Assembly: GCA_964016885.1 (NCBI GenBank)
Contig: OZ024742.1
Location: 135,966,001-136,030,000, forward strand
Source: Eledone cirrhosa
Taxonomy: Eukaryota
Direction: 5' to 3'
Length of the DNA stretch: 64,000 nt
The notes beneath the pieces are model-generated. The model worked only from the letters and a program-made list of their open reading frames with translations. It did not search any database and was not told the origin of the DNA. The translations under genes were made by a program, and so were the position numbers. Below, piece after piece: positions 1 to 57,545 of this stretch. How positions within the stretch are numbered: the first letter of the stretch is position 1; each line of letters begins with the position of its first letter.

Positions 1-1967
1 TAGCAGCCACCACTAACTCAACTACCACCACAACCATAGCAGCCACCACTAACACAACTACCACCACAACCACAGCAGCCACCACTAACACAACTACCAC
101 CACAACCATAGCAGGCACCACTAACACAACTACCGCCACAACCACAGCAGGCACCACTAACACAACTACCACCACAACCATAGCAGCCACCACTAACTCA
201 ACTACCACCACAACCATAGCAGCCACCACTAACACAACTACCACCACAACCACAGCAGCCACCACTAACACAACTACCACCACAACCATAGCAGGCACCA
301 CTAACACAACTACCGCCACAACCACAGCAGCCACCGCTAACACAACTACCACCACTACCATAGCAGCCACCACTAACACAACTACCACCCCTACCACAGC
401 AGGCACCACTAACACAACTACCACCACAACCATAGCAGCCACCACTAACTCAACTACCACCACAACCATAGCAGCCACCACTAACACAACTACCACCACA
501 ACCACAGCAGCCACCACTAACACAACTACCACCACAACCATAGCAGGCACCACTAACACAACTACCGCCACAACCACAGCAGCCACCGCTAACACAACTA
601 CCACCACTACCATAGCAGCCACCACTAACACAACTACCACCCCTACCACAGCAGGCACCACTAACACAACTACCACCACAACCACAGCAGGCACCACTAA
701 CACAACTACCACCACAACCATAGCAGGCACCACTAACACAACCACAGCAGGCACCACTAACACAACTACCACCACAACCATAGCAGGCACCACTAACACA
801 ACTACCGCCACAACCACAGCAGGCACCACTAACACAACTACCACCACAACCACAGCAGCCACCACTAACACAACTACCACCCCTACCACAGCAGGCACCA
901 CTAACACAACTACCACCACTACCACAGCAGTCACCACTAACACAACTACCGCCACAACCACAGCAGGCACCACTAACACAACTACCACCACAACCACAGC
1001 AGCCACCACTAACACAACTACCACCCCTACCACAGCAGGCACCACTAACACAACTACCACCACTACCACAGCAGGCACCACTAACACAACTACCGCCACA
1101 ACCACAGCAGGCACCACTAACACAACTACCACCACAACCACAGCAGCCACCACTAACACAACTACCACCCCTACCACAGCAAGCACCACTAACACAACTA
1201 CCACCACTACCACAGCAGGCACCACTAACACAACTAGCACCACAACCACAGCAGCCACCACTAACACAACTACCACCACAACCACAGCAGGCACCACTAA
1301 CACAACTACCACCACTACCACAGCAGGCACCACTAACACAACTACCACCACAACCACAGCAGCCACCACTAACACAACTACCACCCCTACCACAGCAGGC
1401 ACCACTAACACAACTACCACCAGTACCACAGCAGCCACCACTAACACAACTACCACCACAACCACAGCAGGCCCCACTAACTCAACTACCATCACTACCA
1501 CAGCAGGCACCACTAACACAACTACCGCCACTACCATAGCAGCCACCACTAACACAACTACCACCACTACCACAGCAGCCACCACTAACACAACTACCAC
1601 CACAACCACAGCAGGCCCCACTAACTCAACTACCATCACTACCACAGCAGGCACCACTAACACAACTACCGCCACTACCATAGCAGCCACCACTAACACA
1701 ACTACCACCACTACCACAGCAGCCACCACTAACACAACTACCACCACAACCACAGCAGGCCCCACTAACTCAACTACCACCACAACCACAGCAGCCACCA
1801 CTAACACAACTACCACCACTACCATAGCAGCCACCACTAACACAACTACCACCACTACCACAGCAGCCACCACTAACACAACTAGCACCACAACCACAGC
1901 AGGCCCCACTAACTCAACTACCACCACTACCACAGCAGGCACCACTAACACAACTACCACCACTACA
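1..1967. repeat. 36-bp minisatellite (unit gcagccaccactaacacaactaccaccacaaccaca), about 54 copies, running off the left edge
   Basis: Direct 36-bp periodicity with substitutions and one 12-bp deletion near 740. Confidence 0.97.
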
Positions 1968-12564: not shown

Positions 12565-13026
12565 TTAATTAGGTTTATAATATTTGAAAGTTCTTCTAAT
12601 TCTATGATTGCAAGATATAATTAATTCTTGTCGCTTATTTAATAGGATATCCTTAGATTTCATAATTTCAAAAAGTTCCTGGGAGCATAATCTACACTCA
12701 TATCTGTTATTTTGATAAGGGGTGACCCTTTTGAGTACACTACAGCTCAGGTTATAATCGATATTCTTTTTTCTATAATTATTAATTGTTTCAGCCAAGG
12801 ATGTTGTATTAGCTAATGCGGCATTTTTAAAACTATGTTTGTGGGTATTAAATCTTACTTTAAATTGGTTAGACGGAGCTCCTATATATGAATAAATTGA
12901 GTCCTTAGTGCTAATTTTACATTTATATACTATGTTATTAATAAGACAATTTCCCTTTAATGGGCAATTTATTTTGTTTCTACAGTTACAACCATTCGTG
13001 AATATTATATCAGGGGAGTTAGTCAA
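12565..13026 (-). pseudogene. Penelope GIY-YIG endonuclease domain
   Basis: CNCRNKINCPLKGNCLINNIVYKC...YSYIG...FKVRFNTHKHSF...CRLCSQE...LLNKRQEL...CNH, the typical PLE zinc-binding plus GIY-YIG layout. Confidence 0.92.
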
Positions 13027-14424
13027 ATTTGGTGTGGAATTTACTCGACTTGTTATATGTGAAGGAGATGGTGGTTTGTTGCGGTTTATTTTAGTTTTAT
13101 GGTTGGTTTGATGTGTTGGTGGTATATTCGTGGTTTTCTTTTACATTTATATGCATTGTACGCACTTATATGTTGTTGTATATTTTTGGTAGTGGAGTAG
13201 GAAAATTTGACAGTTGATCTATTTAAAATTTGATGGTATTTATGGTTTGGCGGGAAGTTTTTCTCTAGGATAGTAAAAACATTTTTAGGGATATTATCTT
13301 TAATTTGTAGATTAAATGGAGCATTATACCAAGTAACTCGTCTATTACGGTTTCGATGTCGTTTTTTATATGTATACGATGTATCAGGATGTTTGCTAAG
13401 AGAGTTAGTATTAGTGAATTTATTATATATAGGTTTAGTTAGATTAACAGATTTAGGTGTTTTAGTCTGATTATTAGGAATTTTGTTAGTAATGTTATTA
13501 ACGTATATTGGAGTATTAGGATGAATGGTTTTTTGAAAGTTATTATATTTTATGTGAGTAGAGGTAGAGAAATTCATTTTTAGGTTGGTATTTTGGGGTG
13601 TAGTGTGAGTGGCATTTAGGTGTGTGATTTTCATTTGGTGTTTGTTGGTAATATTGGGTTGTATGTTTGAAGTATCATTGGTGCAAGGTATATAGACTAA
13701 TTTGTTTTTGTGGCCGCTTCTAGCTAAAGCTTCGTTATAAAAGGGCGCATTTTTATCGAATACATCCTGGTTAGATGAGAGGTTAGAAATTCTTAGTGAG
13801 ATATTATATGCTAGGTATTTAAGGATAGATCTAGGGTGATTGGATTGTGAGTAATGTAATGTAAGTTTTGGTTAGGTTTATGGTAAGGTTGGTAGATACC
13901 CGTAGATAAGTCTAAAGTTATATCTAGGAAATTAACTATTTTACTGGTGTTTTCAAATGTAATAGTGAGATTATAATAGTCTTTGAGGAAAGTTCTAATA
14001 AGTTTTTGTTTTTCAGTTTCTGATAGACTAAGGTTAGTGGAAAGAAGAAGACAGTCATCACGATATAAACCACCTTTAAGGTGGGGAAAAGAAGAATGTA
14101 TGTTAATAGAAGAAAGAGGCTCACAAGATCGGTAATTTGGGCAGAATCACTAGAGCCCATAGTAATGTCGAAAAGATTACTATATGTATTTCTGGTCCAG
14201 TATTCCTTCTGAAATTCCAGTAGTGTTTTTCTAGCGTGCGTGATAATATTAATATCATCCATAGTTAAGTTTGATCTATTTTTGGCAAATATCAAGGTTT
14301 TGTTCAGGAGTATGGGTGATATAGAGGGATAATAAGCATCTATATCAAATTGTAGAAATGAAGCAGATGATTTATTTCTAATATTAGTAAACCAGTTAAT
14401 TACTTGGGATGTGTTTTCCCAGAG

Positions 14425-14858
14425 TGGTTACTAATATTAGAAATAAATCATCTGCTTCATTTCTACAATTTGATATAGATGCTCATTATCCCTCTATATC
14501 ACCCATACTCCTGAACAAAACCTTAATATTTGCCAAAAATAGATCAAACTTAACTATGGATGATATTAATATTATCACGCACGCTAGACAAACACTACTG
14601 GAATTTCAGAAGGAATACTGGACCAGAAATACATAGAGTAATCTATTCGACATTACTATGGGCTCTAGTGATTCTGCCCAAATTACCGATCTTGTGGGCC
14701 TCTTTCTTCTATTTAACATAAATTCTTCTTTTCCCCACCTTAAAGGTGGTTTATATCGTGATGACTGTCTTCTTCTTTCCACTAACCTTAGCCTATCAGA
14801 AATTAAAAAAATTAAAAACTTATTAGAACTTTCATCAAAGACTATTATAGTCTCACTA
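14425..14858 (+). mobile_element. Inverted duplicate of Penelope 1 RT segment (fold-back arm)
   Basis: Near-identical reverse complement of 13963-14393 with about 30-nt spacer; encodes FDIDAHYPSI...MGSSDSAQ...GLYRDDCL. Confidence 0.92.
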
Positions 14859-17800
14859 CCGCCTCCCTCTCCCCACACTACCCGCCCCACACCCTTCCAC
14901 CACTTGTTTATCTTCATGTTTATTTGTACCCCTTCCACCGTTTGTCCTCCCCCCCCCCTTTTCTAAATGTCTCTCCACCACTCCCCCACGCACCCTCGTA
15001 ACTCTCCTCCGACCCACTTTACTCCTGAAGAAGGGCTTATGCCCGAAACGCCCCCCCCTACACACACACTCTCAAGAGCGTGAAACTAATAAACCTTTGT
15101 TTGTACTGCCTCTCTGTTTTCTTCCCGTTCCATTTTTCACTATACAATACACGCTCCCATGGCTTCCATACCACCTTGGAATACCACCTTGACTACCGGC
15201 TCAACCCCGTGACCACTCTCTGAACTTTTCCCACACCTCCCACAACCCGTTTTTTCCTTTCTTTGCATTACTTTTTGATTGATTTATTTACTGTATTTGT
15301 TTATTTCTGTCTATGATTTTTTGTCCATGATTTCCTGTGTTTATTTATGATTATGATTTTTTGTCTATGATTTTCCTGTGTATACACTCCTCTCCTTACG
15401 TTATTTATGTTTGATTTTCCCTCCCCGTCTCTGTCTACCTTTCGCACTCACCCCCTCGTTCCCAACCCCCACCCCCGCATCACACACCTCCCTTCTCATT
15501 CCTCCCCTTGCTTTCACTCCACACCCACCATGCCCAACCTGAGATCCTTTCTCCACCAACTCCACACCCGCCTCAAACTTTTACTCACCCCTCCTCCCAC
15601 CCTGCTATCTTCCCTCGGCCCTCCAAATCTCCTACCTTCTCTTCGCCAAAACCCGGCACTCCAGCCACATCCATTTCCTCAGTCGCTGCCTCCACCTCCA
15701 CCTCATCCACCTCGGCTTCAGACTACACTTCTACACCTCCCCCTCCGCTTCCCCCTGCACCCAACGTATCCTCACCCGATCCTCGCACCTCCTAATGCGC
15801 AACTCCCTCCGCTACTCCCGCTCCACCATCCGCAAACTTGACTACCAACTGACCCCCACTCTCCTCCGCCTTAACTCCGCTTGCCACCCCCTCCTCGCCC
15901 ACACCATCCTCCTCTTCATCCAAAACCACAACCACGACCTCTTCTCCTTCCTCATCTCCACCAAAGCCCTTAACCTACACTCACTCCTCTATACCACCAA
16001 CATCCACCACCCCGCCCATCCCTATGACCACCACCCACCACTCCACACCCCTACCCCGTCTGCACCCTCCCCTCCTCCTTCATACACCCAAACCCCACCA
16101 CTTGTTGTCACCATACCCCCTGTCCTCCCCCTCGCCGCACCTGAGCGCTCACTCCTCAGTAGAGGCCTTCGCTTCATACCCCACACTCCGCAGAACGACG
16201 AGTTCCGCACCCGAACGGAAGTCAAGCGATTCGTGCGACACACGAAGCTACAGGCATATTTTCATCAAACGCCACCGGCTCCGAACGCCTCAGACCCGTT
16301 TCTCGCCCTGGGCCGACGACCATCGTCTTGGACACCGGCCTCAGAGCAATTTAGCACCCTGGACGCGTTCGTCGACGCCTGCCGTAGCGCAGTAAATCGC
16401 TTCGACTTCCGCCACCGGTCCAAACGGCATAACATCTCACGGGGCGAACTCCTCGCTCTCCGCTCCCTCCGTAGCCGAGATGACATCGTCAACAAACCGG
16501 CGGACAAGGGAGGCGCCGTGGTGATGTTACGCGCTGACCTCTACACGGTCAAAGCCCTCAGGCAGCGGCGTAACCCCCTCTTCTACCGCCCTCTACCCTT
16601 CCGACCCCACACCCCTCTACCAACAACAAGTTTCCTCCACCATCCAACACCTTGTCTCCTCCTCCCTCCTCCCTCCCACCGCTTCCAACCTCATCGTCCG
16701 CATCGTCCGCACCCCTACTATCTACTTCCTCCCCATACTCCACAAACCCGACAACCTCGGCCGCCCCATCGTCTTTGCTTGCAACTTCCCCACCGAACTC
16801 GACTCCGCCCTTCTTGACTCCATCCTCTCCCTCCTCATCACCACCCTCCCCTCCCACATCTCCGACACCAACCACGCCCTTCGCCTATTCGACTCCTTCA
16901 CTTTCCCACCCGGCCCACAGCCCCTCCTCTTCACCCTAGATATCAAGTCGCTTTATACTGTCATCTCCCACGCCGACGGCCTACGTGACCTCAAGCACTA
17001 CGTCGACCTTCGCCCCTTCCCCATCCCCTCCACCTCCACCCTCCTTCGCCTTACCGAGCTGGTCCTCACCCTCAACTGCTTCTCCTTCTCTGGTGAGTTT
17101 TACCAACAGGTCACGAGGGTAACCATAGGCACAAAATGGGCCCAAACTATGCTAACCTTTTCGTTGGCCATGTTGAGGCCCAAATCTTTGCCCAGTACAC
17201 CTGCCCCACGCCCGAACTGTACGGTCGTTACATCGACGACTGTATCGGAGCCACGACCCTTACCCGAGAACAGCTCGACTCCTTTCTCTCCTTCTTCTGC
17301 TCCTTCCACCCCTCCCTCCACTTCACCACCTCTATCTCCACCACCCACGTCACTTCTTGGACATCTTCGTCCCCTCCCACCACTCCCTCGTCACCTCCAC
17401 CTTCTTCAAACCCACTGACTCCCACTCATACCTAGATTTCACCTCCTCCCACCCTACACACACTAAACACTCTATATCCTACTCCCAACGCCTCAGGCTC
17501 CGCCGCCTCTGCAGCCGAGATGCTGACTTTGTGTCCCAGGCCTTTTCCCTAGTCAGCCATTTCATCCGCAGAGGTTACCCCCCCTTGTCAACACCGCCCT
17601 CACTCGCGCCCGTGCTGTCCACCGCTCCCGTGCTGCCCACCGCACCACCACCACCCTCATTCTGATCTCCCCACCCCTATTCCTTTAGCCTGCGTCCGCC
17701 ACCCCCCACCCACCCCCAACACACAACACATATCCACTAACACCACTAACACACTGCTCCTTTTCACAGCCCACCGCCTTGGCCCACCCCACAACTAACA

Positions 17801-19228
17801 ATACTAACACCCCCACACCCCAACCGACCAGCCTCCCCCAACTAACAAAACTAACTTCCCCACCCCTCCCCCTATCACGTACACACCCACCGGTACATAT
17901 ATACATGCACTCACACTCTTCACACACCCTACTACCACCACTAACCCTCACCCACACATCCACTCCAACCACCCCTCAACTAATACCACTAACATCCCGC
18001 CGACCCCACGCACACGAACACACCCACCCACCCACACCCACTTACACCACCCACTCCACACACCCTACCACCACTGACCCCCACTAACACACCCCCATTC
18101 AACCCTTTCCCCACCACCAGTATACTAACACCCACTAACACCCTCTTCACCACACACACACTAATCCAAACACGCACACACACACCAGTACATTACACTC
18201 CCTCGACCGTCTCCCACACCTTTTCTCTCCCTCTCCCCGCTCCACCCACACCCCTTCACACACACATACACATCCCACTAACACCTCTGGTAATACACAC
18301 CCCACACCCCACATGACCCCCTCCCCACTCCACCTTTCATACCTACCCACCCTCTCCCCTGTCCACCGCACCTCCGCACACACTGACACACTGACTTTCT
18401 CCACCTGCCGTTCTTCTCTACTGCTGCTATGCCTTCTCCTGCCTTGACCCTCTGACCACTTCCTGTTGCGCGCGCACCCCCACATCTCCGCTCTTCCAAC
18501 TACCACAGCCAACGGATTACACAGCATCGGCTATCGTTCCCACTATCCACTCCATAACATGGAAAATATCCGGCACCCCTTAACACCCTCTACGGAACTA
18601 CCTTAGGAACTTACCCACGGACATACACTCACAATTTGTTTTCGAACCACGCCACCTACATCCACAAAACGTATAAACACCAACACACACGTGCGTCCCT
18701 CCACATATATACACACTCAGCCTCTGGAATCCCCTCCCAACCTCCCTCCACCACCCCTCTGACCCCTCCCCATCCACACGCACACACACACCGACCTACA
18801 CCCCACCCCACACACACACACCTTTTCCTGAACATGGAACCTCGTTCTTCCCCCAACTCTCACATTCACATACACACACACACACACATACACTAACACT
18901 ACCTTCAGCCCTCCCCGCTCAGACATCCCGCCTCCCTCTCTCCACTCCACACCCCACCACCCATATCCACCACTTGTTTATCTTCATGTTTATTTTTATT
19001 TTTATTTGTACCCCTTCCACCGTTTTTCCTCCCTTTCCTCTCTCCTCCCCTTTCTTTTCTAAATGTCATTCCACCCACCACCCACCCCAGAACTCTCCTC
19101 CTACCCACTTTTCTCCTGAAGAAGGGCTTATGCCAGAAACGCTCGCCCCCCACACTCTCAAGAGCGTAAAACTAATAAACCTTTGTTTGTACTGCCTCTC
19201 TGTTTTGTTCCGTTCCATTTTTCACTAT
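14859..19228 (+). mobile_element. Penelope-like element 2 (different family), degraded RT between about 290-bp direct pLTRs (14859-15143, 18928-19228)
   Basis: KPADKGGAVV, LFTLDIKSLYT, MGPNYANLFVG, YGRYIDDC and KPTDSHSYLDFTSSHP motifs across frameshifts; both terminal repeats contain ctgaagaagggcttatgcc(c/a)gaaacg. Confidence 0.9.
19112..19170 (+). ncRNA. Degenerate pLTR hammerhead-like motif (second copy at 15021-15082)
   Basis: CTGAAGA, ggc-ttat-gcc stem II, GAAA, acgctc/gagcgt stem III and GTA are present, but stem I does not pair. Confidence 0.4.
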
Positions 19229-19479
19229 ATATATATAAACAAAATTATCTCGAATATCGAGGTTGGATGTGCAAATTTATTTGAATCCGTAAAATAATAA
19301 GAACTTAATGATGCAAGGATGCTGTTAATACAGGAAAATACCGCTAATGAGTGTGTCGGGTAAAATTTACTTGAAAGAATAGAAATTAGCAGCTAGAAGT
19401 GTGTTGACTCGCAGTAGTGATAGGAAGAAAGGTGAAAAGGAAGAAAATGACGAGATCACGCAAACATTTATATACATCA

Positions 19480-36169: not shown

Positions 36170-39100
36170 CTACAGGCTGATATAGAGAGAAGGCCCATTC
36201 ACTCGGGCCAGTCTCGCCACTTTCACCCACCTTTCATAAAACTTGCTGGGGTACAGCACTTCTCTCTCCATCCTGATTCTTCTTCCAAAGTCGTATTTGA
36301 AAAAAAGAATCAGTTGTTGGCCGGAGAGAAAGGTGTCTGACCTCAGCCCTTTTAACCTCGTCCACCATGCAACCACTTTAGCCATAGCTATCACACAAAG
36401 GAAAACCGCCTCTCCTTCGTTTTTGAAGGAGGGTGGCAGTTTGATTATGACAATGGACTCGGTGGTCAATTGGATTGGTCCCACCCGCGACAATAGTCGT
36501 TCTACATAGCCCCACAGGTCGCTAACGCCCGGGCAGTGTACAAATGCGTGCGCGACGGTTTCCTCGTCGCGCACGCATCACGGACAGATCTTTTTCGAAG
36601 GGTCTCTGCCCGGGCGCCCGTGTCTGTAGAGCTTGTCTCGAACTGGTAGAGCTCCTCGGTAGCACTGCCAGGCCAGGGACTTTTGGAAGTTGTCCATCGG
36701 TCCCGGGCGGAAGGTTCTACCGAACAGACTGGCCACTTCGTCTTTCTCTACGCCTAGAGTTTCTCCGAGCGCGTCGTCGCACTTGCTGCGGACCAACCCT
36801 CTATAGAATGACGAAGTGGAGTCTCCACTTATCGCCGGGTCCGCCTGCCAGAGGGCTGTGAGCGCCTGAGCACATTCGATGTGCCAGTCGCCCATTTTCC
36901 TCGGTCTTTGCTTGACCAAGGACTGCAGCTCGGTCAGCGAGACGAGTCGTGGGAACCAGGCCCACACCGGTTGTCCGATGAGGAATACGTGGAGGTGCCG
37001 CAGCCTGAGCGCGTGTTTGCGCATAGTCAGCCACGGCAGCCCCAGCCCTCCGTTTGAAGAGTGTTGGCAGCAGATGGATCTTCTCACCAAAGGCCCCTCT
37101 TTTCCAAAGGAATTGGAAGAGCGCGCGCTCCATTTTGGTGAGCGTTTTGGCTGGACAAGGCACGACGGTCAAGCGGTAGTAGATGACGGACGCTATAAAT
37201 GTATTCGCCACCTGCGCTCGACCTTTCAAGGATAGTTTGCACTCGGCCCACTTCTGGGTGAGTGCAAACACCTTGGCCGTCACATCGTTCCAGTTCTTCT
37301 CCACCTGGAGGTCCGGACCAAACCAGACCCCGAGCAGTTTTACCGGTCCTTCCGTCCAGCGTCCGACGACGCCATCGGAAGGCATCGGTTTGCCTCTCCA
37401 CGATCCGAGTTGCAAACCGATGGACTTGTCCCGGTTCAGCTTCGCTCCTGTGAACCTTTCGTATTCCTTCAGTAAGGTGCCAACTTCCTCGATTTGCGAG
37501 GTGCTCGACACCCTTACTGTCACGTCGTCGGCGTAGACCGAGGCCGCTTTCCGCAGTCCTGGTTCCAGAAGAATGCCCTGCAATAGCCCCAACTTCCGAT
37601 TAGTGACTCGAGAGTCAATACGTACAGAAGGGAGGAGAGGAGGCATCCCTGTCGAATGTATCGCGTGATATGGAACGGCTCTGAGAGGTAGCCGTTCACC
37701 TTGATCCTTGAGCAGATGTTACTGTTGTGCATTGCAGCAATCCAGCCCCTGAACACTGGTCCGAAGCCTGCCGCCTCGAGTACCGCATCCAGGTAACGAT
37801 GGTCAACCCTATCGAAAGCCTTAGACTGATCCAAGTTGATCAGGGCCCCACCGAAGCCAGGTTTACACCCTACCCTCTCTATGATGTATCGCATGAGGTG
37901 GAGGTTGTCGTGTATGGACCTGCTCGAGATTGCGCATGTCTGCACTTCTCCCACCAGGTTCTCGACGAAAGCGCCAGCCTCTTTGCTAACACCTTGGCCA
38001 AAATCTGTAACTCTATGTTGAGCAGAGTTATGGGCCGGAAGTTACCTATGTCATCCCCCTTATTCTCGTCCTTCCTGACTAGTGTGACTACGCCTCTGGT
38101 CACAGAACTGGCAATTCTCCCGTTCTGCTGCCAGTTGCTGTAGACTGCTTCCAGGAGACCGGAGAACAAGTCCGGCATTGCTACGTAAAATTCGTAGGGT
38201 AGACCGTCGAGACCTGGAGATTTGCATTTGCCGCATTGGCTCAGCGCGTCCCCTATCTCAGCGGCTGAAATCAGCTTTTCGCAGAACTTCACCTCGCTGT
38301 CCGAGAGTCGCGGTAGGCCGTCGAGGTATGGACCGAAATCCATAGCCTCTCCCGGCGCGCCGCCCTGCCCGAACAGCTGAGCAAAGTGCCGCTAAAAGGC
38401 CGCGAACAGCTGCTTCGGCTCACGTATCACGCGTCCGTCTTGGTCCTTCAAAGACCGAATCGTGGACTTGTTGCCACTTTTCGCCTCCGTCGCCCGGGCC
38501 CAGCTAACAGCTTTGGCCCCTCGTTACCCAGAGCACGTATTTTGCTTCTGACAACGCAGCCCTCGTGCTTTGCGTCGAATAACTGGTCCAAGGCCGTTCT
38601 CGTTGCTAGCACGCTGGCTACGTTGCCACTTCTAATTGCCTCTTCTACTTTATCTGTCAGTTCCTTCTCGGTCCTATTTCTATTTAACGCTATTTCTTTA
38701 CTAAAAACTAACGAGTCTAATCTAACTGCCCTCTTGAGAGAATACCACCATCTGTTGTTGACAATGGTCCTTGTCAAGTGCTGTTTAATTAAAGTTCTAA
38801 TCCGTCTACTGTACGCTTTGCATGTCGGTAACAACAAGTTCAGCTTCCAGTAGCCGGGTCCTTGTCTATGGGTTCTATCAAGGTTGACCATGCAGATCAC
38901 TAGTTTGTGATCTGAATAGGTAACCATGAACATTTGTGGACAGCTTAACATGTCCCTATCTTTATTTCTAACTAGAACCCTATCTAGGTACGATCTAGAT
39001 GTTCCGCTAAGATTAGTCCACGTCCACTGTGGCACAGTCGGAAAATCTAGTCGATATCTATCGGCCAGGTCAAATCGGCCGATTAACTGTTTGAGGCTGT

Positions 39101-39587
39101 TACACTCCCCTTTATCGGGACATGCTCCCACATAGTCCCAACGTGCATATAGGATGTCATTCCAGTCCCCCACTAAAAGCAAGGAGCGAGACGTTCCCAG
39201 AAAAGTCTCTAGACGTTTGAAGAAATCTGGCCGCGGTGTCTCGGATGGGGCATATGCGGCCACCAGCCTGAAGGCTCCACCTTCACTACCGTCAACGTCT
39301 AGGACCACCAGTCGACCCTCCGGGTCCAGATGTATCGTCTGTGTTACGAGGTCCATGTGTTTCCGCAGCTAAACGGCAACCCCGCCCCCACCTCCCGGCT
39401 GACAGAGAGTTGCGTAGATCTCAAAGTCGTCGAAGATGGGGGCCAGCTGTCGCGCGCTGTGGATCCTGGACTCGCAAATGGCTACTACATCCATACTGTG
39501 CGACCTGAGGTCGTTTAAGACTTTGCCCTGTTTTCAGGGCAACCCCAGCCGGCGTATATTCACACATCCAACTCTTATATTGGCCAT
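36170..39587 (-). pseudogene. LINE ORF2 (APE endonuclease plus reverse transcriptase), frameshifted
   Basis: ATG at 39587 (MANIRVGCVNIR); LVGDWN, SYLDRV, YSDHKLV, GPGYWKLN; KSPGLDGLP, NFRPITLLN, LDQSKAFDRVDH, IRQGC, YADDVT; HAFVHCP. Confidence 0.92.
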
Positions 39588-43642: not shown

Positions 43643-43683
<41 letters not shown>

Positions 43684-43689
<6 letters not shown>

Positions 43690-46600
43690 ATAAATGCTCT
43701 GAAATAGCGATATATATGTGAATATAGACACAGAATATTCGAAAATATTCTGTATGTTTATAATAAACATTTTGAAGACCTAATCGCTATAGAACAGAAT
43801 ACGTCACGTATTACAATTAGATTCTCGATAAAAGCAAGGGAAGTAAGTCTACGCGTTTCATTCTTGTTAGAATTCATCAGGACTACATATCCAGTGCTTT
43901 CATCGAGAATGACACAGCTAGAGACTTATAGAATACTTAGCTGTGTACAGGAACTGGTTTGAAAGAGCGGTTGCCGGTCCGGCAGAAATTAGAAATTGGA
44001 ATAAATGCTCTGAAATAGCGATATATATGTGAATATAGACACAGAATATTCGAAAATATTCTGTATGTTTATAATAAACATTTTGAAGACCTAATCGCTA
44101 TAGAACAGAATACGTCACGTATTACAATTAGATTCTCGATAAAAGCAAGGGAAGTAAGTCTACGCGTTTCATTCTTGTTAGAATTCATCAGGACTACATA
44201 TCCAGTGCTTTCATCGAGAATGACACAGCTAGAGACTTATAGAATACTTAGCTGTGTACAGGAACTGGTTTGAAAGAGCGGTTGCCGGTCCGGCAGAAAT
44301 TAGAAATTGGAATAAATGCTCTGAAATAGCGATATATATGTGAATATAGACACAGAATATTCGAAAATATTCTGTATGTTTATAATAAACATTTTGAAGA
44401 CCTAATCGCTATAGAACAGAATACGTCACGTATTACAATTAGATTCTCGATAAAAGCAAGGGAAGTAAGTCTACGCGTTTCATTCTTGTTAGAATTCATC
44501 AGGACTACATATCCAGTGCTTTCATCGAGAATGACACAGCTAGAGACTTATAGAATACTTAGCTGTGTACAGGAACTGGTTTGAAAGAGCGGTTGCCGGT
44601 CCGGCAGAAATTAGAAATTGGAATAAATGCTCTGAAATAGCGATATATATGTGAATATAGACACAGAATATTCGAAAATATTCTGTATGTTTATAATAAA
44701 CATTTTGAAGACCTAATCGCTATAGAACAGAATACGTCACGTATTACAATTAGATTCTCGATAAAAGCAAGGGAAGTAAGTCTACGCGTTTCATTCTTGT
44801 TAGAATTCATCAGGACTACATATCCAGTGCTTTCATCGAGAATGACACAGCTAGAGACTTATAGAATACTTAGCTGTGTACAGGAACTGGTTTGAAAGAG
44901 CGGTTGCCGGTCCGGCAGAAATTAGAAATTGGAATAAATGCTCTGAAATAGCGATATATATGTGAATATAGACACAGAATATTCGAAAATATTCTGTATG
45001 TTTATAATAAACATTTTGAAGACCTAATCGCTATAGAACTTACTTCCCTTGCTTTTATCGAGAATCTAATTGTAATACGTGACGTATTCTGTTCTATAGC
45101 GATTAGGTCTTCAAAATGTTTATTATAAACATACAGAATATTTTCGAATATTCTGTGTCTATATTCACATATATATCGCTATTTCAGAGCATTTATTCCA
45201 ATTTCTAATTTCTGCCGGACCGGCAACCGCTCTTTCAAACCAGTTCCTGTACACAGCTAAGTATTCTATAAGTCTCTAGCTGTGTCATTCTCGATGAAAG
45301 CACTGGATATGTAGTCCTGATGAATTCTAACAAGAATGAAACGCGTAGACTTACTTCCCTTGCTTTTATCGAGAATCTAATTGTAATACGTGACGTATTC
45401 TGTTCTATAGCGATTAGGTCTTCAAAATGTTTATTATAAACATACAGAATATTTTCGAATATTCTGTGTCTATATTCACATATATATCGCTATTTCAGAG
45501 CATTTATTCCAATTTCTAATTTCTGCCGGACCGGCAACCGCTCTTTCAAACCAGTTCCTGTACACAGCTAAGTATTCTATAAGTCTCTAGCTGTGTCATT
45601 CTCGATGAAAGCACTGGATATGTAGTCCTGATGAATTCTAACAAGAATGAAACGCGTAGACTTACTTCCCTTGCTTTTATCGAGAATCTAATTGTAATAC
45701 GTGACGTATTCTGTTCTATAGCGATTAGGTCTTCAAAATGTTTATTATAAACATACAGAATATTTTCGAATATTCTGTGTCTATATTCACATATATATCG
45801 CTATTTCAGAGCATTTATTCCAATTTCTAATTTCTGCCGGACCGGCAACCGCTCTTTCAAACCAGTTCCTGTACACAGCTAAGTATTCTATAAGTCTCTA
45901 GCTGTGTCATTCTCGATGAAAGCACTGGATATGTAGTCCTGATGAATTCTAACAAGAATGAAACGCGTAGACTTACTTCCCTTGCTTTTATCGAGAATCT
46001 AATTGTAATACGTGACGTATTCTGTTCTATAGCGATTAGGTCTTCAAAATGTTTATTATAAACATACAGAATATTTTCGAATATTCTGTGTCTATATTCA
46101 CATATATATCGCTATTTCAGAGCATTTATTCCAATTTCTAATTTCTGCCGGACCGGCAACCGCTCTTTCAAACCAGTTCCTGTACACAGCTAAGTATTCT
46201 ATAAGTCTCTAGCTGTGTCATTCTCGATGAAAGCACTGGATATGTAGTCCTGATGAATTCTAACAAGAATGAAACGCGTAGACTTACTTCCCTTGCTTTT
46301 ATCGAGAATCTAATTGTAATACGTGACGTATTCTGTTCTATAGCGATTAGGTCTTCAAAATGTTTATTATAAACATACAGAATATTTTCGAATATTCTGT
46401 GTCTATATTCACATATATATCGCTATTTCAGAGCATTTATTCCAATTTCTAATTTCTGCCGGACCGGCAACCGCTCTTTCAAACCAGTTCCTGTACACAG
46501 CTAAGTATTCTATAAGTCTCTAGCTGTGTCATTCTCGATGAAAGCACTGGATATGTAGTCCTGATGAATTCTAACAAGAATGAAACGCGTAGACTTACTT

Positions 46601-48584
46601 CCCTTGCTTTTATCGAGAATCTAATTGTAATACGTGACGTATTCTGTTCTATAGCGATTAGGTCTTCAAAATGTTTATTATAAACATACAGAATATTTTC
46701 GAATATTCTGTGTCTATATTCACATATATATCGCTATTTCAGAGCATTTATTCCAATTTCTAATTTCTGCCGGACCGGCAACCGCTCTTTCAAACCAGTT
46801 CCTGTACACAGCTAAGTATTCTATAAGTCTCTAGCTGTGTCATTCTCGATGAAAGCACTGGATATGTAGTCCTGATGAATTCTAACAAGAATGAAACGCG
46901 TAGACTTACTTCCCTTGCTTTTATCGAGAATCTAATTGTAATACGTGACGTATTCTGTTCTATAGCGATTAGGTCTTCAAAATGTTTATTATAAACATAC
47001 AGAATATTTTCGAATATTCTGTGTCTATATTCACATATATATCGCTATTTCAGAGCATTTATTCCAATTTCTAATTTCTGCCGGACCGGCAACCGCTCTT
47101 TCAAACCAGTTCCTGTACACAGCTAAGTATTCTATAAGTCTCTAGCTGTGTCATTCTCGATGAAAGCACTGGATATGTAGTCCTGATGAATTCTAACAAG
47201 AATGAAACGCGTAGACTTACTTCCCTTGCTTTTATCGAGAATCTAATTGTAATACGTGACGTATTCTGTTCTATAGCGATTAGGTCTTCAAAATGTTTAT
47301 TATAAACATACAGAATATTTTCGAATATTCTGTGTCTATATTCACATATATATCGCTATTTCAGAGCATTTATTCCAATTTCTAATTTCTGCCGGACCGG
47401 CAACCGCTCTTTCAAACCAGTTCCTGTACACAGCTAAGTATTCTATAAGTCTCTAGCTGTGTCATTCTCGATGAAAGCACTGGATATGTAGTCCTGATGA
47501 ATTCTAACAAGAATGAAACGCGTAGACTTACTTCCCTTGCTTTTATCGAGAATCTAATTGTAATACGTGACGTATTCTGTTCTATAGCGATTAGGTCTTC
47601 AAAATGTTTATTATAAACATACAGAATATTTTCGAATATTCTGTGTCTATATTCACATATATATCGCTATTTCAGAGCATTTATTCCAATTTCTAATTTC
47701 TGCCGGACCGGCAACCGCTCTTTCAAACCAGTTCCTGTACACAGCTAAGTATTCTATAAGTCTCTAGCTGTGTCATTCTCGATGAAAGCACTGGATATGT
47801 AGTCCTGATGAATTCTAACAAGAATGAAACGCGTAGACTTACTTCCCTTGCTTTTATCGAGAATCTAATTGTAATACGTGACGTATTCTGTTCTATAGCG
47901 ATTAGGTCTTCAAAATGTTTATTATAAACATACAGAATATTTTCGAATATTCTGTGTCTATATTCACATATATATCGCTATTTCAGAGCATTTATTCCAA
48001 TTTCTAATTTCTGCCGGACCGGCAACCGCTCTTTCAAACCAGTTCCTGTACACAGCTAAGTATTCTATAAGTCTCTAGCTGTGTCATTCTCGATGAAAGC
48101 ACTGGATATGTAGTCCTGATGAATTCTAACAAGAATGAAACGCGTAGACTTACTTCCCTTGCTTTTATCGAGAATCTAATTGTAATACGTGACGTATTCT
48201 GTTCTATAGCGATTAGGTCTTCAAAATGTTTATTATAAACATACAGAATATTTTCGAATATTCTGTGTCTATATTCACATATATATCGCTATTTCAGAGC
48301 ATTTATTCCAATTTCTAATTTCTGCCGGACCGGCAACCGCTCTTTCAAACCAGTTCCTGTACACAGCTAAGTATTCTATAAGTCTCTAGCTGTGTCATTC
48401 TCGATGAAAGCACTGGATATGTAGTCCTGATGAATTCTAACAAGAATGAAACGCGTAGACTTACTTCCCTTGCTTTTATCGAGAATCTAATTGTAATACG
48501 TGACGTATTCTGTTCTATAGCGATTAGGTCTTCAAAATGTTTATTATAAACATACAGAATATTTTCGAATATTCTGTGTCTATA

Positions 48585-48588
<4 letters not shown>
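43684..48588. mobile_element. Tandem array of 311-bp hammerhead-bearing units (retrozyme-like): about 4.4 units minus-sense plus about 11.4 units plus-sense, in (TA)n
   Basis: ggaataaatgc at 43687, 43998, 44309, 44620, 44931; orientation flips at 45038-45039; units look identical; one HHR per unit. Confidence 0.95.
45287..45376 (+). ncRNA. Type I hammerhead, first of 11 plus-strand copies (period 311; 4 more on minus)
   Basis: gtagtc-CTGATGA-attct-aaca-agaat-GAAA-cgcg-TA-gac(t)tac; distal stem I attctcgatgaaagca/tgcttttatcgagaat (16 bp). Confidence 0.93.
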
Positions 48589-48623
<35 letters not shown>

Positions 48624-48833
48624 TTATTTATATATATGACTTCTACAGGAATAGAACTGTTTCATACGTATGAAATCATCCGGAATTCCTGATGATTTCA
48701 TATGAATTCAACAATTCTAATCCTGTAGAAGACTTTTCTTGTATAATAAAGTTGCCTATACTTTACCAACGTATTTAATACCCTCTCATCTTTATCCTAC
48801 CAATCCCCGAAACATTTCTTGAACCTGTATATA

Positions 48834-52844: not shown

Positions 52845-55800
52845 TATATCTTCACCATATTAACCATCATTTTTATCTTCATCACCATATTAACCATCAT
52901 CTTTATTTTCATCACCATATTAACCATCATCTTTACCTTCATCATCATATTAACCATCATCTTTATCTTCATCACCATATTAACCATCATTTTTATCTTC
53001 ATCACCATATTAACCGTCATCTTTATCTTCATCACCATATTAACCATCATTTTTATCTTCATCACCATATTAACCATCATCTTTATCTTCATCACCATAT
53101 TAACCATAATTTTTATCTTCATCACCATATTAACCATCATTTTTATCTTCATCACCATATTAACCATCATCTTTATCTTCATCACCACATTAACCATCAT
53201 GTTTATCTTCATCACCATATTAACCATCATCTTTATTTTCATCACCATATTAACCATCATTTTTAACTTCATCACCATATTAACCACATCTTTATCTTCA
53301 TCACCATATTAACCATCAACTTTAACTTCATCACCATATTAAGCATCATCTTTATATTCATCACCATATTAACCATCATTTTTATCTTCACCATATTAAC
53401 CATCATCTTTACCTTCATCACCATATTAACCATCATCTTTATCTTCATCACCATATTAACCATCATTTTTATCTTCATCACCATATTAACCATCATCTTT
53501 ATCTTCATCACCATATTAACCATCATTTTTATCTTCATCACCATATTAACCATCATCTTTATCTTCACCATATTAACCATCATTTTTATCTTCATCACCA
53601 TATTAACCATCATTTTTATCTTCATCACCATATTAACCATCATCTTTATTTTCATCACCATATTAACCATCATCTTTATCTTCATCACCATATTAACCAT
53701 CATCTTTATATTCATCACCATATTAACGATCATCTTTATCTTCATCACCATATTAACCATCATTTTTATATTCATCACCATATTAACCATCATTTTTATC
53801 TTCATCACCATGTTAACCATCATTTTTATCTTCACCATATTAACCATCATCTATATATTCATCACCATATTAACCATCATTTTTAACTTCACCATATTAA
53901 CCATCATTTTTAACTTCATCACCATATTAACCATCATTTTTATATTCATCACCATATTAACCATCATCTTTATCTTCATCACCATATTAACCATCATTTT
54001 TATATTCATCACCATATTAACCATCATCTTTATCTTCTTCACCATATTAACCATCATCTTTATCTTCATCACCATATTAACCATCATTTTTTATCCTTAT
54101 CACCATATTAACCATCATTTTTATCTTCATCATCATATTAACCATCATCTTTATATTCATCACCATATTAACCATCATTTTTATCTTCATCACCATATTA
54201 ACCATCAGCTTTATCTTCATCACCATATTAACCATCATCTTTATCTTCATCACCATATTAACCATCATCTTTATCTTCTTCACCATATTAACCATCATCT
54301 TTATATTCATCACCATATTCACCATCATCTTTATCTTCATCACCATATTAACCATCAGCTTTATTTTCATCACCATATTAACCATCATCTTTATCTTCAT
54401 CACCATATTAACCATCATTTTTATCTTCATCACCATATTAACCAGCATCTTTATCTTCATCACCATATTAACCATCATTTTTATATTCATCACCATATTA
54501 ACCATCATCTTTATCTTCTTCACCATAATAACCATCATCTTTATCTTCATCACCATATTAACCATCATTTTTTATCCTTATCACCATATTAACCATCATT
54601 TTTATCTTCATCATATTAACCATCATCTTTATATTCATCACCATATTAACCATCATTTTTATCTTCATCACCATATTAACCATCAGCTTTATCTTCATCA
54701 CCATATTAACCATCATTTTTTATCCTTATCACCATATTAACCATCATCTTTATATTCATCACCATATTAACCATCATTTTTATCTTCATCACCATATTAA
54801 CCATCATCTTTATCTTCATCACCATATTAACCATCATCTTTATCTTCATCACCATATTAACCATCATCTTTCTCTTCTTCACCATATTAACCATCATCTT
54901 TATCTTCACCATATTAACCATCATGTTTAACTTCATCACCATATTAACCATCATTTTTATATTCATCACCATATTAACCATCATTTTTATCTTCATCATC
55001 ATATTAACCATCATTTTTATCTTCATCACCATATTAACCATCATCTTTATGTTCATCACCATATTAACCATCATTTTTATCTTCATCACCATATTAACCA
55101 TCATCTTTATCTTCATCACCATATTAACCATCATCTATATATTCATCACCATATTTACCATCATTTTTAACTTCACCATATTAACCATCATGTTTAACTT
55201 CATCACCATATTAACCATCATTTTTATATTCATCACCATATTAACCATCATTTTTATCTTCATCACCATATTAACCATCATCTTTATATTCATCACCATA
55301 TTAACCATCATCTTTATCTTCACCATATTAACCATCAGCTTTATTTTCATCACCATATTAATCATCATCTTTATCTTCATCACCATATTAACCATCATTT
55401 TTAACTTCATCACCATATTAACCATCATCTTTATATTCATCATATTAACCATCATTTTTATCTTCATCACCATATTAAACCATCATCTTTATGTTGATCA
55501 CCATATTAACCATCATTTTTATCTTCATCACCATATTAACCATCATCTTTATCTTCATCACCATATTAACCATCATCTTTATTTTCATCACCATATTAAC
55601 CATCATTTTTAACTTCATCACCATATTAACCATCATTTTTAACTTCATCACCATATTAACCATCATTTTTATATTCATCACCATATTAACGATCATCTTT
55701 ATCTTCATCACCATATTAACCATCATTTTTATACTCATCACCATATTAACCATCATTTTTATCTTCATCACCATATTAACCATCATTTTTATCTTCACCA

Positions 55801-57545
55801 TATTAACCATCATCTATATATTCATCACCATATTAACCATCATTTTTAACTTCACCATATTAACCATCATTTTTAACTTCATCACCATATTAACCATCAT
55901 TTTTATATTCATCACCATATTAACCATCATCTTTATCTTCATCACCATAATAACCATCATTTTTATCTTCATCACCATATTAACCATCATCTTTATCTTC
56001 ATCACCATATTAACCATCATCTTTATCTTCATCACCATATTAACGTTCATTTTTAACTTCATCACCATATTAACCATCATCTTTATATTCATCACCATAT
56101 TAACCATCATTTTTTATCTTCATCACCATATTAACCATCATCTTTATCTTCATCACCATATTAACCATCATCTATATATTCATCACCATATTTACCATCA
56201 TTTTTAACTTCACCATATTAACCATCATGTTTAACTTCATCACCATATTAACCATCATTTTTATATTCATCACCATATTAACCATCATTTTTATCTTCAT
56301 CACCATATTAACCATCATCTTTATATTCATCACCATATTAACCATCATCTTTATCTTCATCACCATATTAACCATCAGCTTTATTTTCATCACCATATTA
56401 ATCATCATCTTTATCTTCATCACCATATTAACCATCATTTTTAACTTCATCACCATATTAACCATCATCTTTATATTCATCATCATATTAACCATCATTT
56501 TTATCTTCATCACCATATTAAACCATCATCTTTATGTTCATCACCATATTAACCATCATTTTTATCTTCATCACCATATTAACCATCATCTTTATCTTCA
56601 TCACCATATTAACCATCATCTTTATTTTCATCACCATATTAACCATCATTTTTAACTTCATCACCATATTAACCATCATTTTTAACTTCATCACCATATT
56701 AACCATCATTTTTATATTCATCACCATATTAACGATCATCTTTATCTTCACCATATTAACCATCATCTATATATTCATCACCATATTAACCATCATTTTT
56801 AACTTCACCATATTAACCATCATTTTTAACTTCATCACCATATTAACCATCATTTTTATATTCATCACCATATTAACCATCATCTTTATCTTCATCACCA
56901 TATTAACCATCATTTTTATATTTATCACCATATTAACCATCATCTTTATCTTCTTCACCATATTAACCATCATCTTTATCTTCATCACCATATTAACCAT
57001 CATTTTTTATCCTTATCACCATATTAACCATCATTTTTATTTTCATCACCATATTAACCATCATCTTTATATTCATCACCATATTAACCATCATTTTTAT
57101 ATTTATCACCATATTAACCATCATCTTTATCTTCTTCACCATATTAACCATCATATTTATCTTCATCACCATATTAACCATCATTTTTTATCCTTATCAC
57201 CATATTAACCATCATTTTTATCTTCATCACCATATTAACCATCATCTTTATCTTCTTCACCATATTAACCATCATCTTTATCTTCTTCACCATATTAACC
57301 ATCATCTTTATCTTCATCACCATACTAACCATCATTGTTTATCCTTATCACCATATTAACCATCATCTTTATATTCATCACCATATTAACCATCATTTTT
57401 ATCTTCATCACCATATTAACCATCATCTTTATATTCATCACCATATTAACCATCATTTTTATCTTCATCACCATATTCACCATCATCTTTATCTTCATCA
57501 CCATATTAACCATCATCTTTATATTCATCACCATCACAATCATCG
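52845..57545. repeat. 30-bp minisatellite (catcaccatattaaccatcatttttatctt), about 155-160 copies with 27- and 31-bp variants
   Basis: Direct periodicity. Confidence 0.97.

Follow-up and report, generated by a model that had tools for sequence, protein, structure and literature searches.

Head-to-head tandem arrays of a new non-LTR retrozyme family in Eledone cirrhosa have an insertion anatomy that points to PLE machinery

The array of 311-nt repeats at positions 43684..48588 of the window (the whole 64,000-nucleotide stretch of Eledone cirrhosa contig OZ024742.1 that was analysed) appears from its sequence to represent a non-LTR retrozyme family that is new, and the anatomy of its insertions points to the machinery of Penelope-like elements (PLEs). 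As a retrozyme the family is an ordinary new one; the new part is how its copies are inserted. Our main reading, to which we assign a probability of about two in three (0.68), is that the element is a non-LTR retrozyme, itself non-autonomous, which a PLE mobilises in trans through two-arm, circle-templated insertion. Taken separately, a retrozyme with PLE-type integration is very probable, and a circular template is likely. The most detailed version, in which the arrays record ribozyme-made circular RNA that was reverse-transcribed in rolling-circle mode from both ends of one PLE staggered break by two RTs, with two fixed start sites and one monomer haplotype, recently and more than 1,000 times, seems to us somewhat better than an even bet.

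The array has a period of 311, zero mismatches to its unit, no sequence variants over 4.9 kb and a GC content of 35%. The identical units of the original prediction were thus borne out, as were the (TA)n flanks on both sides (43647..43684 on the left, with further TA/TG runs back to 43523, and 48589..48618 on the right). The units do not form the one tandem first described, but two head-to-head arms. The left arm (43684..45039, sense on the minus strand) holds 4.4 units with 4 hammerheads, starting at unit position 55 and ending at 166, which we call the long end. The right arm (45038..48588, plus strand) holds 11.4 units with 11 hammerheads, starts at unit position 2 and finishes in the short end, where the last unit-matching base is position 131 and the sequence then merges into (TA)n at the AU run of the unit. 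These 5'-truncated arms meet at 45038..45039 with an overlap of 2 nt of microhomology, and the sequence across this junction occurs nowhere else in the genome. The outer ends lie at different fixed unit positions, 166 versus 131-140, and a PLE-type tail (unit positions 141-166, at 43684..43709, minus strand) is present at the long end only. The earlier view of a rolling-circle cDNA concatemer is retained in part: insertion of a multimer in one event stands, but a single concatemer was rejected, the array being made of two opposed, divergent cDNA-like arms. On the repeated unit, ATG-started frames reach at most 39 aa, in agreement with the reported lack of ORFs of 60 aa or more, and the longest stop-free runs are 59 codons on the plus strand and 84 on the minus. 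No LTR-like direct terminal repeat was seen. The RT plus GIY-YIG ORF of an autonomous PLE is absent from the array; at other places the genome does have ORFs of this kind.

A single monomer, reckoned between successive cleavage sites (45348..45658, plus strand, unit positions 1-311), is the predicted circle. Its circular fold reaches -74 kcal/mol (z -5.7 versus 60 shuffles), and the four hairpins named in the original prediction are all present in the MFE fold. The type I hammerhead, including its 16-bp extension, spans 45287..45376 on the plus strand. The extension pairs 45287-45302 with 45361-45376 (z -3.3), matching the helix proposed beyond stem I, which itself is formed by 45311-45316 and 45348-45354; the core lies at 45317-45323, stem II at 45324-45337 and the palindromic stem III at 45341-45346, and cleavage is predicted after 45347, the same site as before. 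Complete cores were found in 15 of 15 hammerheads of the array, as claimed for each unit. An Rfam scan of the array found no family at gathering score, the best match being Hammerhead_HH9 (17.8 bits, E 0.12, cut-off 52), so that the hammerhead call rests on core letters and covariation. A genome scan with the core pattern returned 14,361 matches versus 0 for the reversed control, and the cores are therefore not a product of chance. Across 18 sequences, C3-G8 and U3-A8 occurred 9:9, and each of the four pairs in stem II was compensatory, with 0 of 500 shuffles doing as well (a control that ignores relatedness); the ribozyme appears to be kept under selection. The family alignment favours a stem II of 4 bp with a 6-nt loop over the 5 bp first assigned, and a common variant, 288A>T (26 of 49 loci), gives this stem a U-U mismatch at its base. 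Palindromes of 6, 10 and 12 nt support the palindromic stem III, whose duplex is worth -7.5 kcal/mol and which has no monomer hairpin. The ideas of a retrozyme and of a young family are both supported. Within each arm the core was found on the sense strand and not on the opposite one (other ribozyme classes were checked via Rfam alone), whereas viroid-like RNA replicons carry ribozymes in both polarities. The unit also contains a 3'-end module (45401..45513, plus strand), about 75% shared with older sister families. It consists of a long hairpin (z -4.8) with the AU run 45480-45487 on its 3' strand, then the tail, 45488-45513, and is a candidate region for RT binding and start.

Exact copies of the fixed element/(TA)n ends numbered 1,049 for the long end (166) and 1,287 for the short end (131-140) in the genome, against 0 and 18 for the controls, and the family occupies more than 1,000 dispersed loci with a median of 2.6 kb. 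In 36 of 45 loci the long end was at unit position 166, and in 38 of 45 the short end fell on 131 or 140. Over 214 Mb of C1 there were 80 long ends, of which 53 were accompanied, no more than 20 kb away, by a short end in divergent orientation (0.005 by chance for each), and none of the 80 was part of a long-long pair. Among 32 family loci picked regardless of layout, 25 were head-to-head (13/17, with the window excluded, and 12/15); a single orientation was found in 7 of 55 loci. Either end may be the left or the right one, and the arms join through 0-6 nt of microhomology or through the element's own helices. Insertion targets are microsatellites or AT-rich sequence, mostly (TA)n. A target duplication of 11-17 nt was present in 9 of 12 informative loci, exactly 12 nt long in five of them (control, 28 of 132 mismatched pairs); the remaining 3 flagged as informative lie in pure TA, three 25-nt 'duplications' in pure TA were discarded as trivial, and the window locus also sits in pure TA, where a duplication is unreadable. 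An independent sequencing run contained the unit at very great depth, its loose ends running into (AT)n at position 140, and the closed contigs of this run fit a circle or tandem DNA alike. Four of 24 runs were compared, and raw-read run X23 gave 0 reads in about 1% of its data. The element has the make-up of a non-LTR retrozyme (150-450-bp tandem units of low GC, non-coding, with a type I hammerhead and a duplication of more than 4 bp), and its insertions are of PLE type, with an inverted 5'-truncated copy, a tail between two fixed starts and a microsatellite target.

The resident PLE families have a matching layout of two ends and one tail in (TA)n. Published EN+ PLEs (Craig et al. 2021, PMC8557442; Frangieh et al. 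2024, PMC11167929) are alike in their inverted 5'-truncated copy, one-end tail, microsatellite or AT-rich target and two internal RT starts downstream of the hammerhead, with both strands extended. A PLE protein has been shown to cut and extend both strands, and the two internal sites where its RT starts mark the limits of the tail (PMC11167929). The present element differs from EN+ PLEs in having no ORF and in arms that are many turns of one 311-nt unit. Its tail measures 26-35 nt, by where the AU run is counted, versus about 30-40 bp in PLEs, and its short end may pair with the target, whereas the published PLE enzyme started without homology (PMC11167929). Two divergent cDNA-like arms, PLE-type ends and a target duplication together point to a PLE cut that was primed on both of its sides. 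No PLE with a matching 3' module was found among about a dozen PLE 3' ends. A hunt for a partner through GIY-YIG loci, 15 tail-motif loci, a young family that is also head-to-head and has a comparable hammerhead core, and a module profile over all the collected loci recovered retrozymes only. Compared with 80 PLE-bearing regions, the window unit gave one TA-type match (three regions with known retrozyme inserts were filtered out), and the matches listed for three sister units were all TA-type. Likeness to pLTRs, with 150 of 10,596 candidates scored, consisted of a 28-nt hammerhead-core match (E 0.017) and a similar hammerhead style.

Evidence on the template came from the units themselves, 359 of 413 of which equal the consensus of their own locus, with 21 haplotypes among 49 insertions. 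In 9 insertions a private haplotype was carried by 91 of 91 units, which requires a one-unit bottleneck, and a haplotype was common to both arms in 30 of 32 regions versus 8.5% by chance. Truncation points fell within 5 nt of the cleavage site in 3 of 100 cases versus 3.2 expected (of the 50 junctions behind them, two are duplicates and one belongs to a neighbouring insertion). The common arm haplotype, the fixed private variants and truncations blind to the cleavage site point to a seamless single-monomer template, most readily taken to be a circle. The lengths of the arms follow an exponential, and the two arms of a locus add up to as many as about 25 units. The right arm starts 1 nt past the cleavage site, as if RT had run off a cleaved 5' end; this was rejected for lack of enrichment over the 100 truncation points, and the position of that start is therefore attributed to chance. 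Fold-back copying of the first cDNA was also rejected, since of 42 loci the long-end arm is the longer one in 27 and the shorter one in 15.

Integration by a PLE from linear RNA, either as an uncleaved multimer primed twice or with an RT that jumps repeatedly between terminal repeats, the hammerhead being inherited or secondary, is the alternative that survives best, and we consider it unlikely. Unprocessed RNA is the dominant PLE substrate in vitro and hammerhead mutants had no effect on insertion (PMC11167929); stem II is weak in the commonest haplotypes, and linear RNA accounts equally for seamless junctions. One linear multimer also predicts arms of the same haplotype. Non-autonomous Chlamys elements such as MRC1 (PMC8557442) are likewise non-coding and PLE-mobilised, with multicopy head-to-tail insertions; their 3' end resembles an autonomous family and their clade is mostly without canonical hammerheads, so that tandem arms are possible without a ribozyme-made circle. 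Unlike them, the present family has a hammerhead in every unit, and no matching autonomous end was found. Linear RNA would, however, have to meet the one-unit bottleneck set by the private variants, and copying linear arrays only shortens them, yet totals of some 25 units occur. Nor do truncations pile up at the cleavage site, and the hammerhead covaries across sister families. Finally, of 52 minority variants a single one is found as a minority at another locus too, a weak point given a sample of 49 out of more than 1,000 loci.

Very unlikely, in our view, is that a short PLE-derived end inserts and then grows in place like a satellite by unequal crossover or slippage (the scenario of preprint 10.64898/2026.07.22.740005). 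Repeated minority variants in the longest arms suggest that some growth is local: L195/L196 (about 45 units) repeat three of them in 5-6 of 41 units, and L187 is a segmental duplicate. Against growth as the general explanation, a minority variant was present in more than one unit in 8 of 54 cases, all in 3 regions; the two arms are each multimers, their lengths are non-integer and unrelated, and their fixed ends are intact; and neither the variant-free window locus nor the wide dispersal of multi-unit copies favours it.

Mobilisation by a LINE of L1 or RTE type is more doubtful still. L1 twin priming is a known mechanism of LINE inversion that yields the same arm polarity and microhomology, and the genome contains intact RTE-like and broken L1-like ORFs. 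A LINE-mobilised SINE with twin priming has a 3' tail of poly(A) or of a simple repeat, and the position of its inverted end varies. Here no such 3' tail, poly(A) or other, is present; both ends, the inverted one included, sit at two fixed internal positions, left or right; inversion is the rule and not the minority; and the layout is identical to that of resident PLEs. An assembly artefact in identity, copy number or inversion (collapsed repeats, fold-back reads) is the least probable of all. Polishing could mask single-unit variants, and the window locus is read from the assembly, but flanks are unique and unmirrored, each locus has its own junction, single-unit variants were kept in other arrays, and the independent run agrees in unit depth and loose ends.

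For a circle-templated retrozyme mobilised by a PLE we propose the following course. The array would be transcribed, and adjacent hammerheads would pair via the palindromic stem III and cut as dimers. Monomers of 310-311 nt may then be ligated to circles, which a lone hammerhead would leave intact. Judging from the ends, a PLE protein (RT plus GIY-YIG) would bind the hairpin module and cleave both strands of an AT-rich target, in most cases (TA)n, with about 12 nt between the cuts. The target 3' ends would prime cDNA at internal sites whose positions are fixed, at about 166 and at the AU run 131-140, and the latter could pair with the (TA)n overhang. Each RT would circle through the ligated cleavage site and fall off at a random point, on average after 4-6 turns, and the two cDNA ends, whose junctions are observed, would join into head-to-head arms with one tail inside the target duplication.

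In the available text of Cervera and de la Pena (2020, PMC7229834), the non-LTR retrozymes of coral, mussel and axolotl share with the present family non-coding tandem units of 150-450 bp with low GC and a canonical type I hammerhead each, a weak palindromic helix III, dispersed loci and target duplications of more than 4 bp. They are described there as direct tandem repeats, unlike the inverted arms, fixed ends, tail and microsatellite target found here, and their expression and cleavage were shown, whereas those of our family are predicted. A review by the same authors describes repeats without a conserved motif pointing to a helper. For vertebrate retrozymes, the preprint cited above likewise concluded that PLEs are source and helper; its evidence is co-occurrence and pLTR phylogeny, and ours is insertion anatomy, pLTR homology not having been found. 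It proposes local amplification for tandems, and its text has no mollusc, tail or orientation analysis.

No cephalopod retrozyme or inverted retrozyme array was found in the literature searched (subscription papers, supplements and Repbase/Dfam were outside its scope). A helper for animal retrozymes and a circle as template have been proposed since 2020, on no other grounds than co-occurrence and phylogeny; in the present family the ends, the tail, the duplicated target and the haplotypes of the arms are mechanical evidence. The 311-nt RNA, the two start positions and the (TA)n target could be used directly in the published in vitro PLE assay, and the same three measurements are applicable to coral, mussel, axolotl and Xenopus retrozymes. 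If the most detailed reading is true, retrozymes would be tied mechanistically to PLE enzymes, the inverted-copy-plus-tail structure of PLEs would be explained on a template without ends, and the arrays would be born full-length, not grown as satellites.

Tandem Repeats Finder resolved the array into two blocks of period 311, at 43684-45039 (4.4 copies) and 45038-48597 (11.4 copies), the first being the reverse complement of the second. Counting unit positions from 45348, just after the predicted cleavage site, the left arm (43684-45039, minus strand) runs from position 55 to 166 and the right arm (from 45038, plus strand) from position 2 to 131, where it merges with (TA)n, the unit itself having an AU run there up to position 140. 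No mismatch to the unit was found across both arms, which carry 4 (left) and 11 (right) hammerhead cores; the array has 35% GC and no ATG frame longer than 39 aa. The 311-nt units, the hammerhead in each and the (TA)n flanks in the original prediction were thus borne out, while its single plain array had overlooked the inversion into two opposed arms and the unequal ends (166 versus 131). The 5' ends of both arms have 2 nt in common, and the junction sequence occurs once in the genome. All the retrozyme features tested were found in the array or, for the target duplication, in its family. Large minisatellites occupy window positions 2-1963 (36 bp x 55) and 52852-57534 (30 bp x 157).

The head-to-head layout, fixed ends and a target duplication were observed in the family at large. 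The 3.0 Gb of genome searched contained 14,361 matches to the hammerhead core pattern, versus 0 for the control, and the layout was present in 13 of 17 loci chosen by similarity and in 12 of the 15 family loci sampled along contig C1 by position (a 16th, another sequence, was left out). Exact junctions between (TA) and the long end (position 166) numbered 1,049 genome-wide (control, 0), and those with the short end (131-140) 1,287 (control, 18). Of the 80 long ends on the initial 214 Mb of C1, 53 were matched by a divergent short end no more than 20 kb away (median span 2.6 kb); long-long pairs were absent among these 80, and the sole short-short pair consisted of two neighbouring insertions. 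Of 45 two-ended insertions, 36 had the long end at position 166 and 38 had the short end at 131 or 140. Among 12 loci flagged as informative, nine had a direct target duplication of 11-17 nt (mode 12) abutting both ends, and three lay in pure TA; in the control, 28 of 132 mismatched pairs gave a duplication. At five loci (L038, L047, L110, L113 and L116), both flanks consist of tandem repeats of an interrupted TA motif, with the duplicated target as part of it, reflecting either a minisatellite target or repeated copying of the overhang.

This layout is the anatomy of Penelope-like elements (PLEs; RT plus GIY-YIG), whose insertions lie in microsatellites and carry a 5'-truncated copy in inverted orientation and, at one end, a tail of 30-40 bp (Craig et al., PMC8557442). 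The purified protein of one PLE cuts and extends both strands, with reverse transcription starting at two internal sites that bound the tail (Frangieh et al., PMC11167929). Elements with RT and GIY-YIG are abundant in the Eledone genome, some with frames of 844-1,096 codons. Their insertions in (TA)n are head-to-head too, and have a short end and a long end; their tails, read by eye, measure about 30, 45, 60 and 67 nt depending on the family. Directly after the array, at 48637-48830, lies a short head-to-head remnant, a single long hairpin with (TA)n at its end, which is similar to the 3' end of one of the young resident PLE families. From their motifs, we take 12565-14427 (minus), 15543-19300 (plus) and 36578-39368 (minus) to be broken elements, two of them PLE-like and one L1-like; a Pfam scan of five PLE-like frames in the window gave no match.

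Haplotypes were largely homogeneous within insertions. Over 49 insertions with 21 haplotypes, 359 of 413 full units equalled their own locus consensus, and in nine insertions of at least 3 units whose haplotype was unique in the sample, it was present in 91 of 91 units. Both arms had the same haplotype in 30 of 32 regions, versus 8.5% for independent draws, the exceptions being one pair of adjacent insertions and one tie between singletons. Round the unit, truncation points were evenly spread by chi-square (p 0.40) and Rayleigh test (p 0.07); 3 of 100 fell near the cleavage site, where 3.2 were expected. Arm lengths fitted exponentials (means, 4.2 and 5.7 units), and either arm could be the longer. 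Therefore, each insertion drew on one unit's worth of sequence, recopied past the ribozyme site without a stop. A terminally redundant linear RNA on which the RT jumps repeatedly is a possible template, as unprocessed RNA was that of the published PLE (PMC11167929) and the hammerhead-poor Chlamys elements also insert as multiple copies (PMC8557442). A ligated circle is the simplest one; it requires internal initiation, in keeping with the fixed ends, and would be copied by rolling. In the longest arms (about 45 units) minority variants recur, and therefore local growth contributes to some arrays.

At the gathering score, Rfam gave no match for the array, the best by E-value being Hammerhead_HH9, whose 17.8 bits fall below the cut-off of 52. 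Despite this low score, the core, the stems and the 16-bp extension of the predicted hammerhead were all found in the unit. Across 18 aligned sequences of the family and its sisters, positions 3 and 8 covaried (C-G in 9, U-A in 9) and 4 of 4 stem II pairs showed compensatory change; the count was limited to these five pairs because the aligner shifted stems III and I by one column between families. None of 500 shuffles reached the covariation score and slid controls scored far lower, in a control that leaves relatedness in. The U3-A8 pair is a natural variant known to be active (PMC3088659). Stem III varies in sequence and length, yet is usually a perfect palindrome of 6, 10 or 12 nt. The 6-nt form makes no hairpin alone, and its computed duplex with a second copy (-7.5 kcal/mol) corresponds to the arrangement described as cleaving multimers while leaving monomeric circles intact (PMC4209133). 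Two observations count against ribozyme function: a U-U mismatch at the stem II base in the commonest haplotypes, and a recent test in which 1 of 9 Xenopus retrozyme dimers cleaved (preprint 10.64898/2026.07.22.740005). We infer hammerhead cleavage and circularisation of the RNA.

Older sister families of 318-324 nt (L123:7130-7970, L142:3545-4090, L141:3725-4150, L118:4361-4720, L131, L133 and L049, regions of the same genome) likewise have the two-end head-to-head layout. Their 3' module (hairpin, AU run and tail, at 45401-45513 in the array) is about 75% alike, and their hammerheads differ, with U3-A8 and a longer palindromic stem III. A second, unrelated hammerhead repeat (L132:200-1100, L036:500-1300, L115:4600-5500), with a 6-bp stem I, a palindromic stem III, an internal TA run and partial copies both tandem and inverted, is probably a further retrozyme lineage. 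PLE families with a Neptune-type Zn-finger linker (L124, L204, L207, L208, L051) carry full-size rather than minimal hammerheads with U3-A8 and a palindromic stem III. In three such families the palindrome measures 6 nt, and in one of these a 30-nt tail follows an internal TA run. U3-A8 and the palindromic stem III, common to these PLEs and the retrozyme lineage, suggest where the retrozymes originated, but none of the three families has the 3' module. Insertion would be catalysed by PLE proteins.

No RNA run was among the sequencing runs listed with the unit. In sequencing run X1, the unit occurred in 736 contigs with a summed depth of several hundred thousand and loose ends that pass into (AT)n at position 140, in support of the short end and of a copy number that is truly high. 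Runs X4 and X5, labelled as other organisms, each gave one closed 310-nt contig (depths 26 and 34) equal to the majority haplotype of X1; trace tandem DNA closes likewise, so these are no proof of a circle and most likely reflect trace DNA from a very high-copy repeat. Word shares of the unit were also listed for 17 labels in 16 studies, runs X6-X20 among them, and most likely have the same source. Of the 49 loci sampled, 26 are fixed for the variant 288A>T, which gives the U-U mismatch, yet it falls below the 5% variant listing of X1; individuals or close species may vary in subfamily composition, or the variant may have been masked by short contigs.

The retrozyme class has been published, as have the circle model and the hypothesis of PLE involvement (PMC7229834, PMC7761336, preprint 10.64898/2026.07.22.740005). 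These accounts, supplements possibly apart, do not describe retrozymes with inverted arms, fixed ends or a tail, and no such report was among the papers listed by our literature search; by term search, the main text of a 2026 octopus repeat annotation mentions neither ribozymes nor retrozymes (PMC13282606). The Eledone array is thus of a known kind, the retrozyme, and its inverted arms, fixed ends and tail are new variant features relative to these published accounts.
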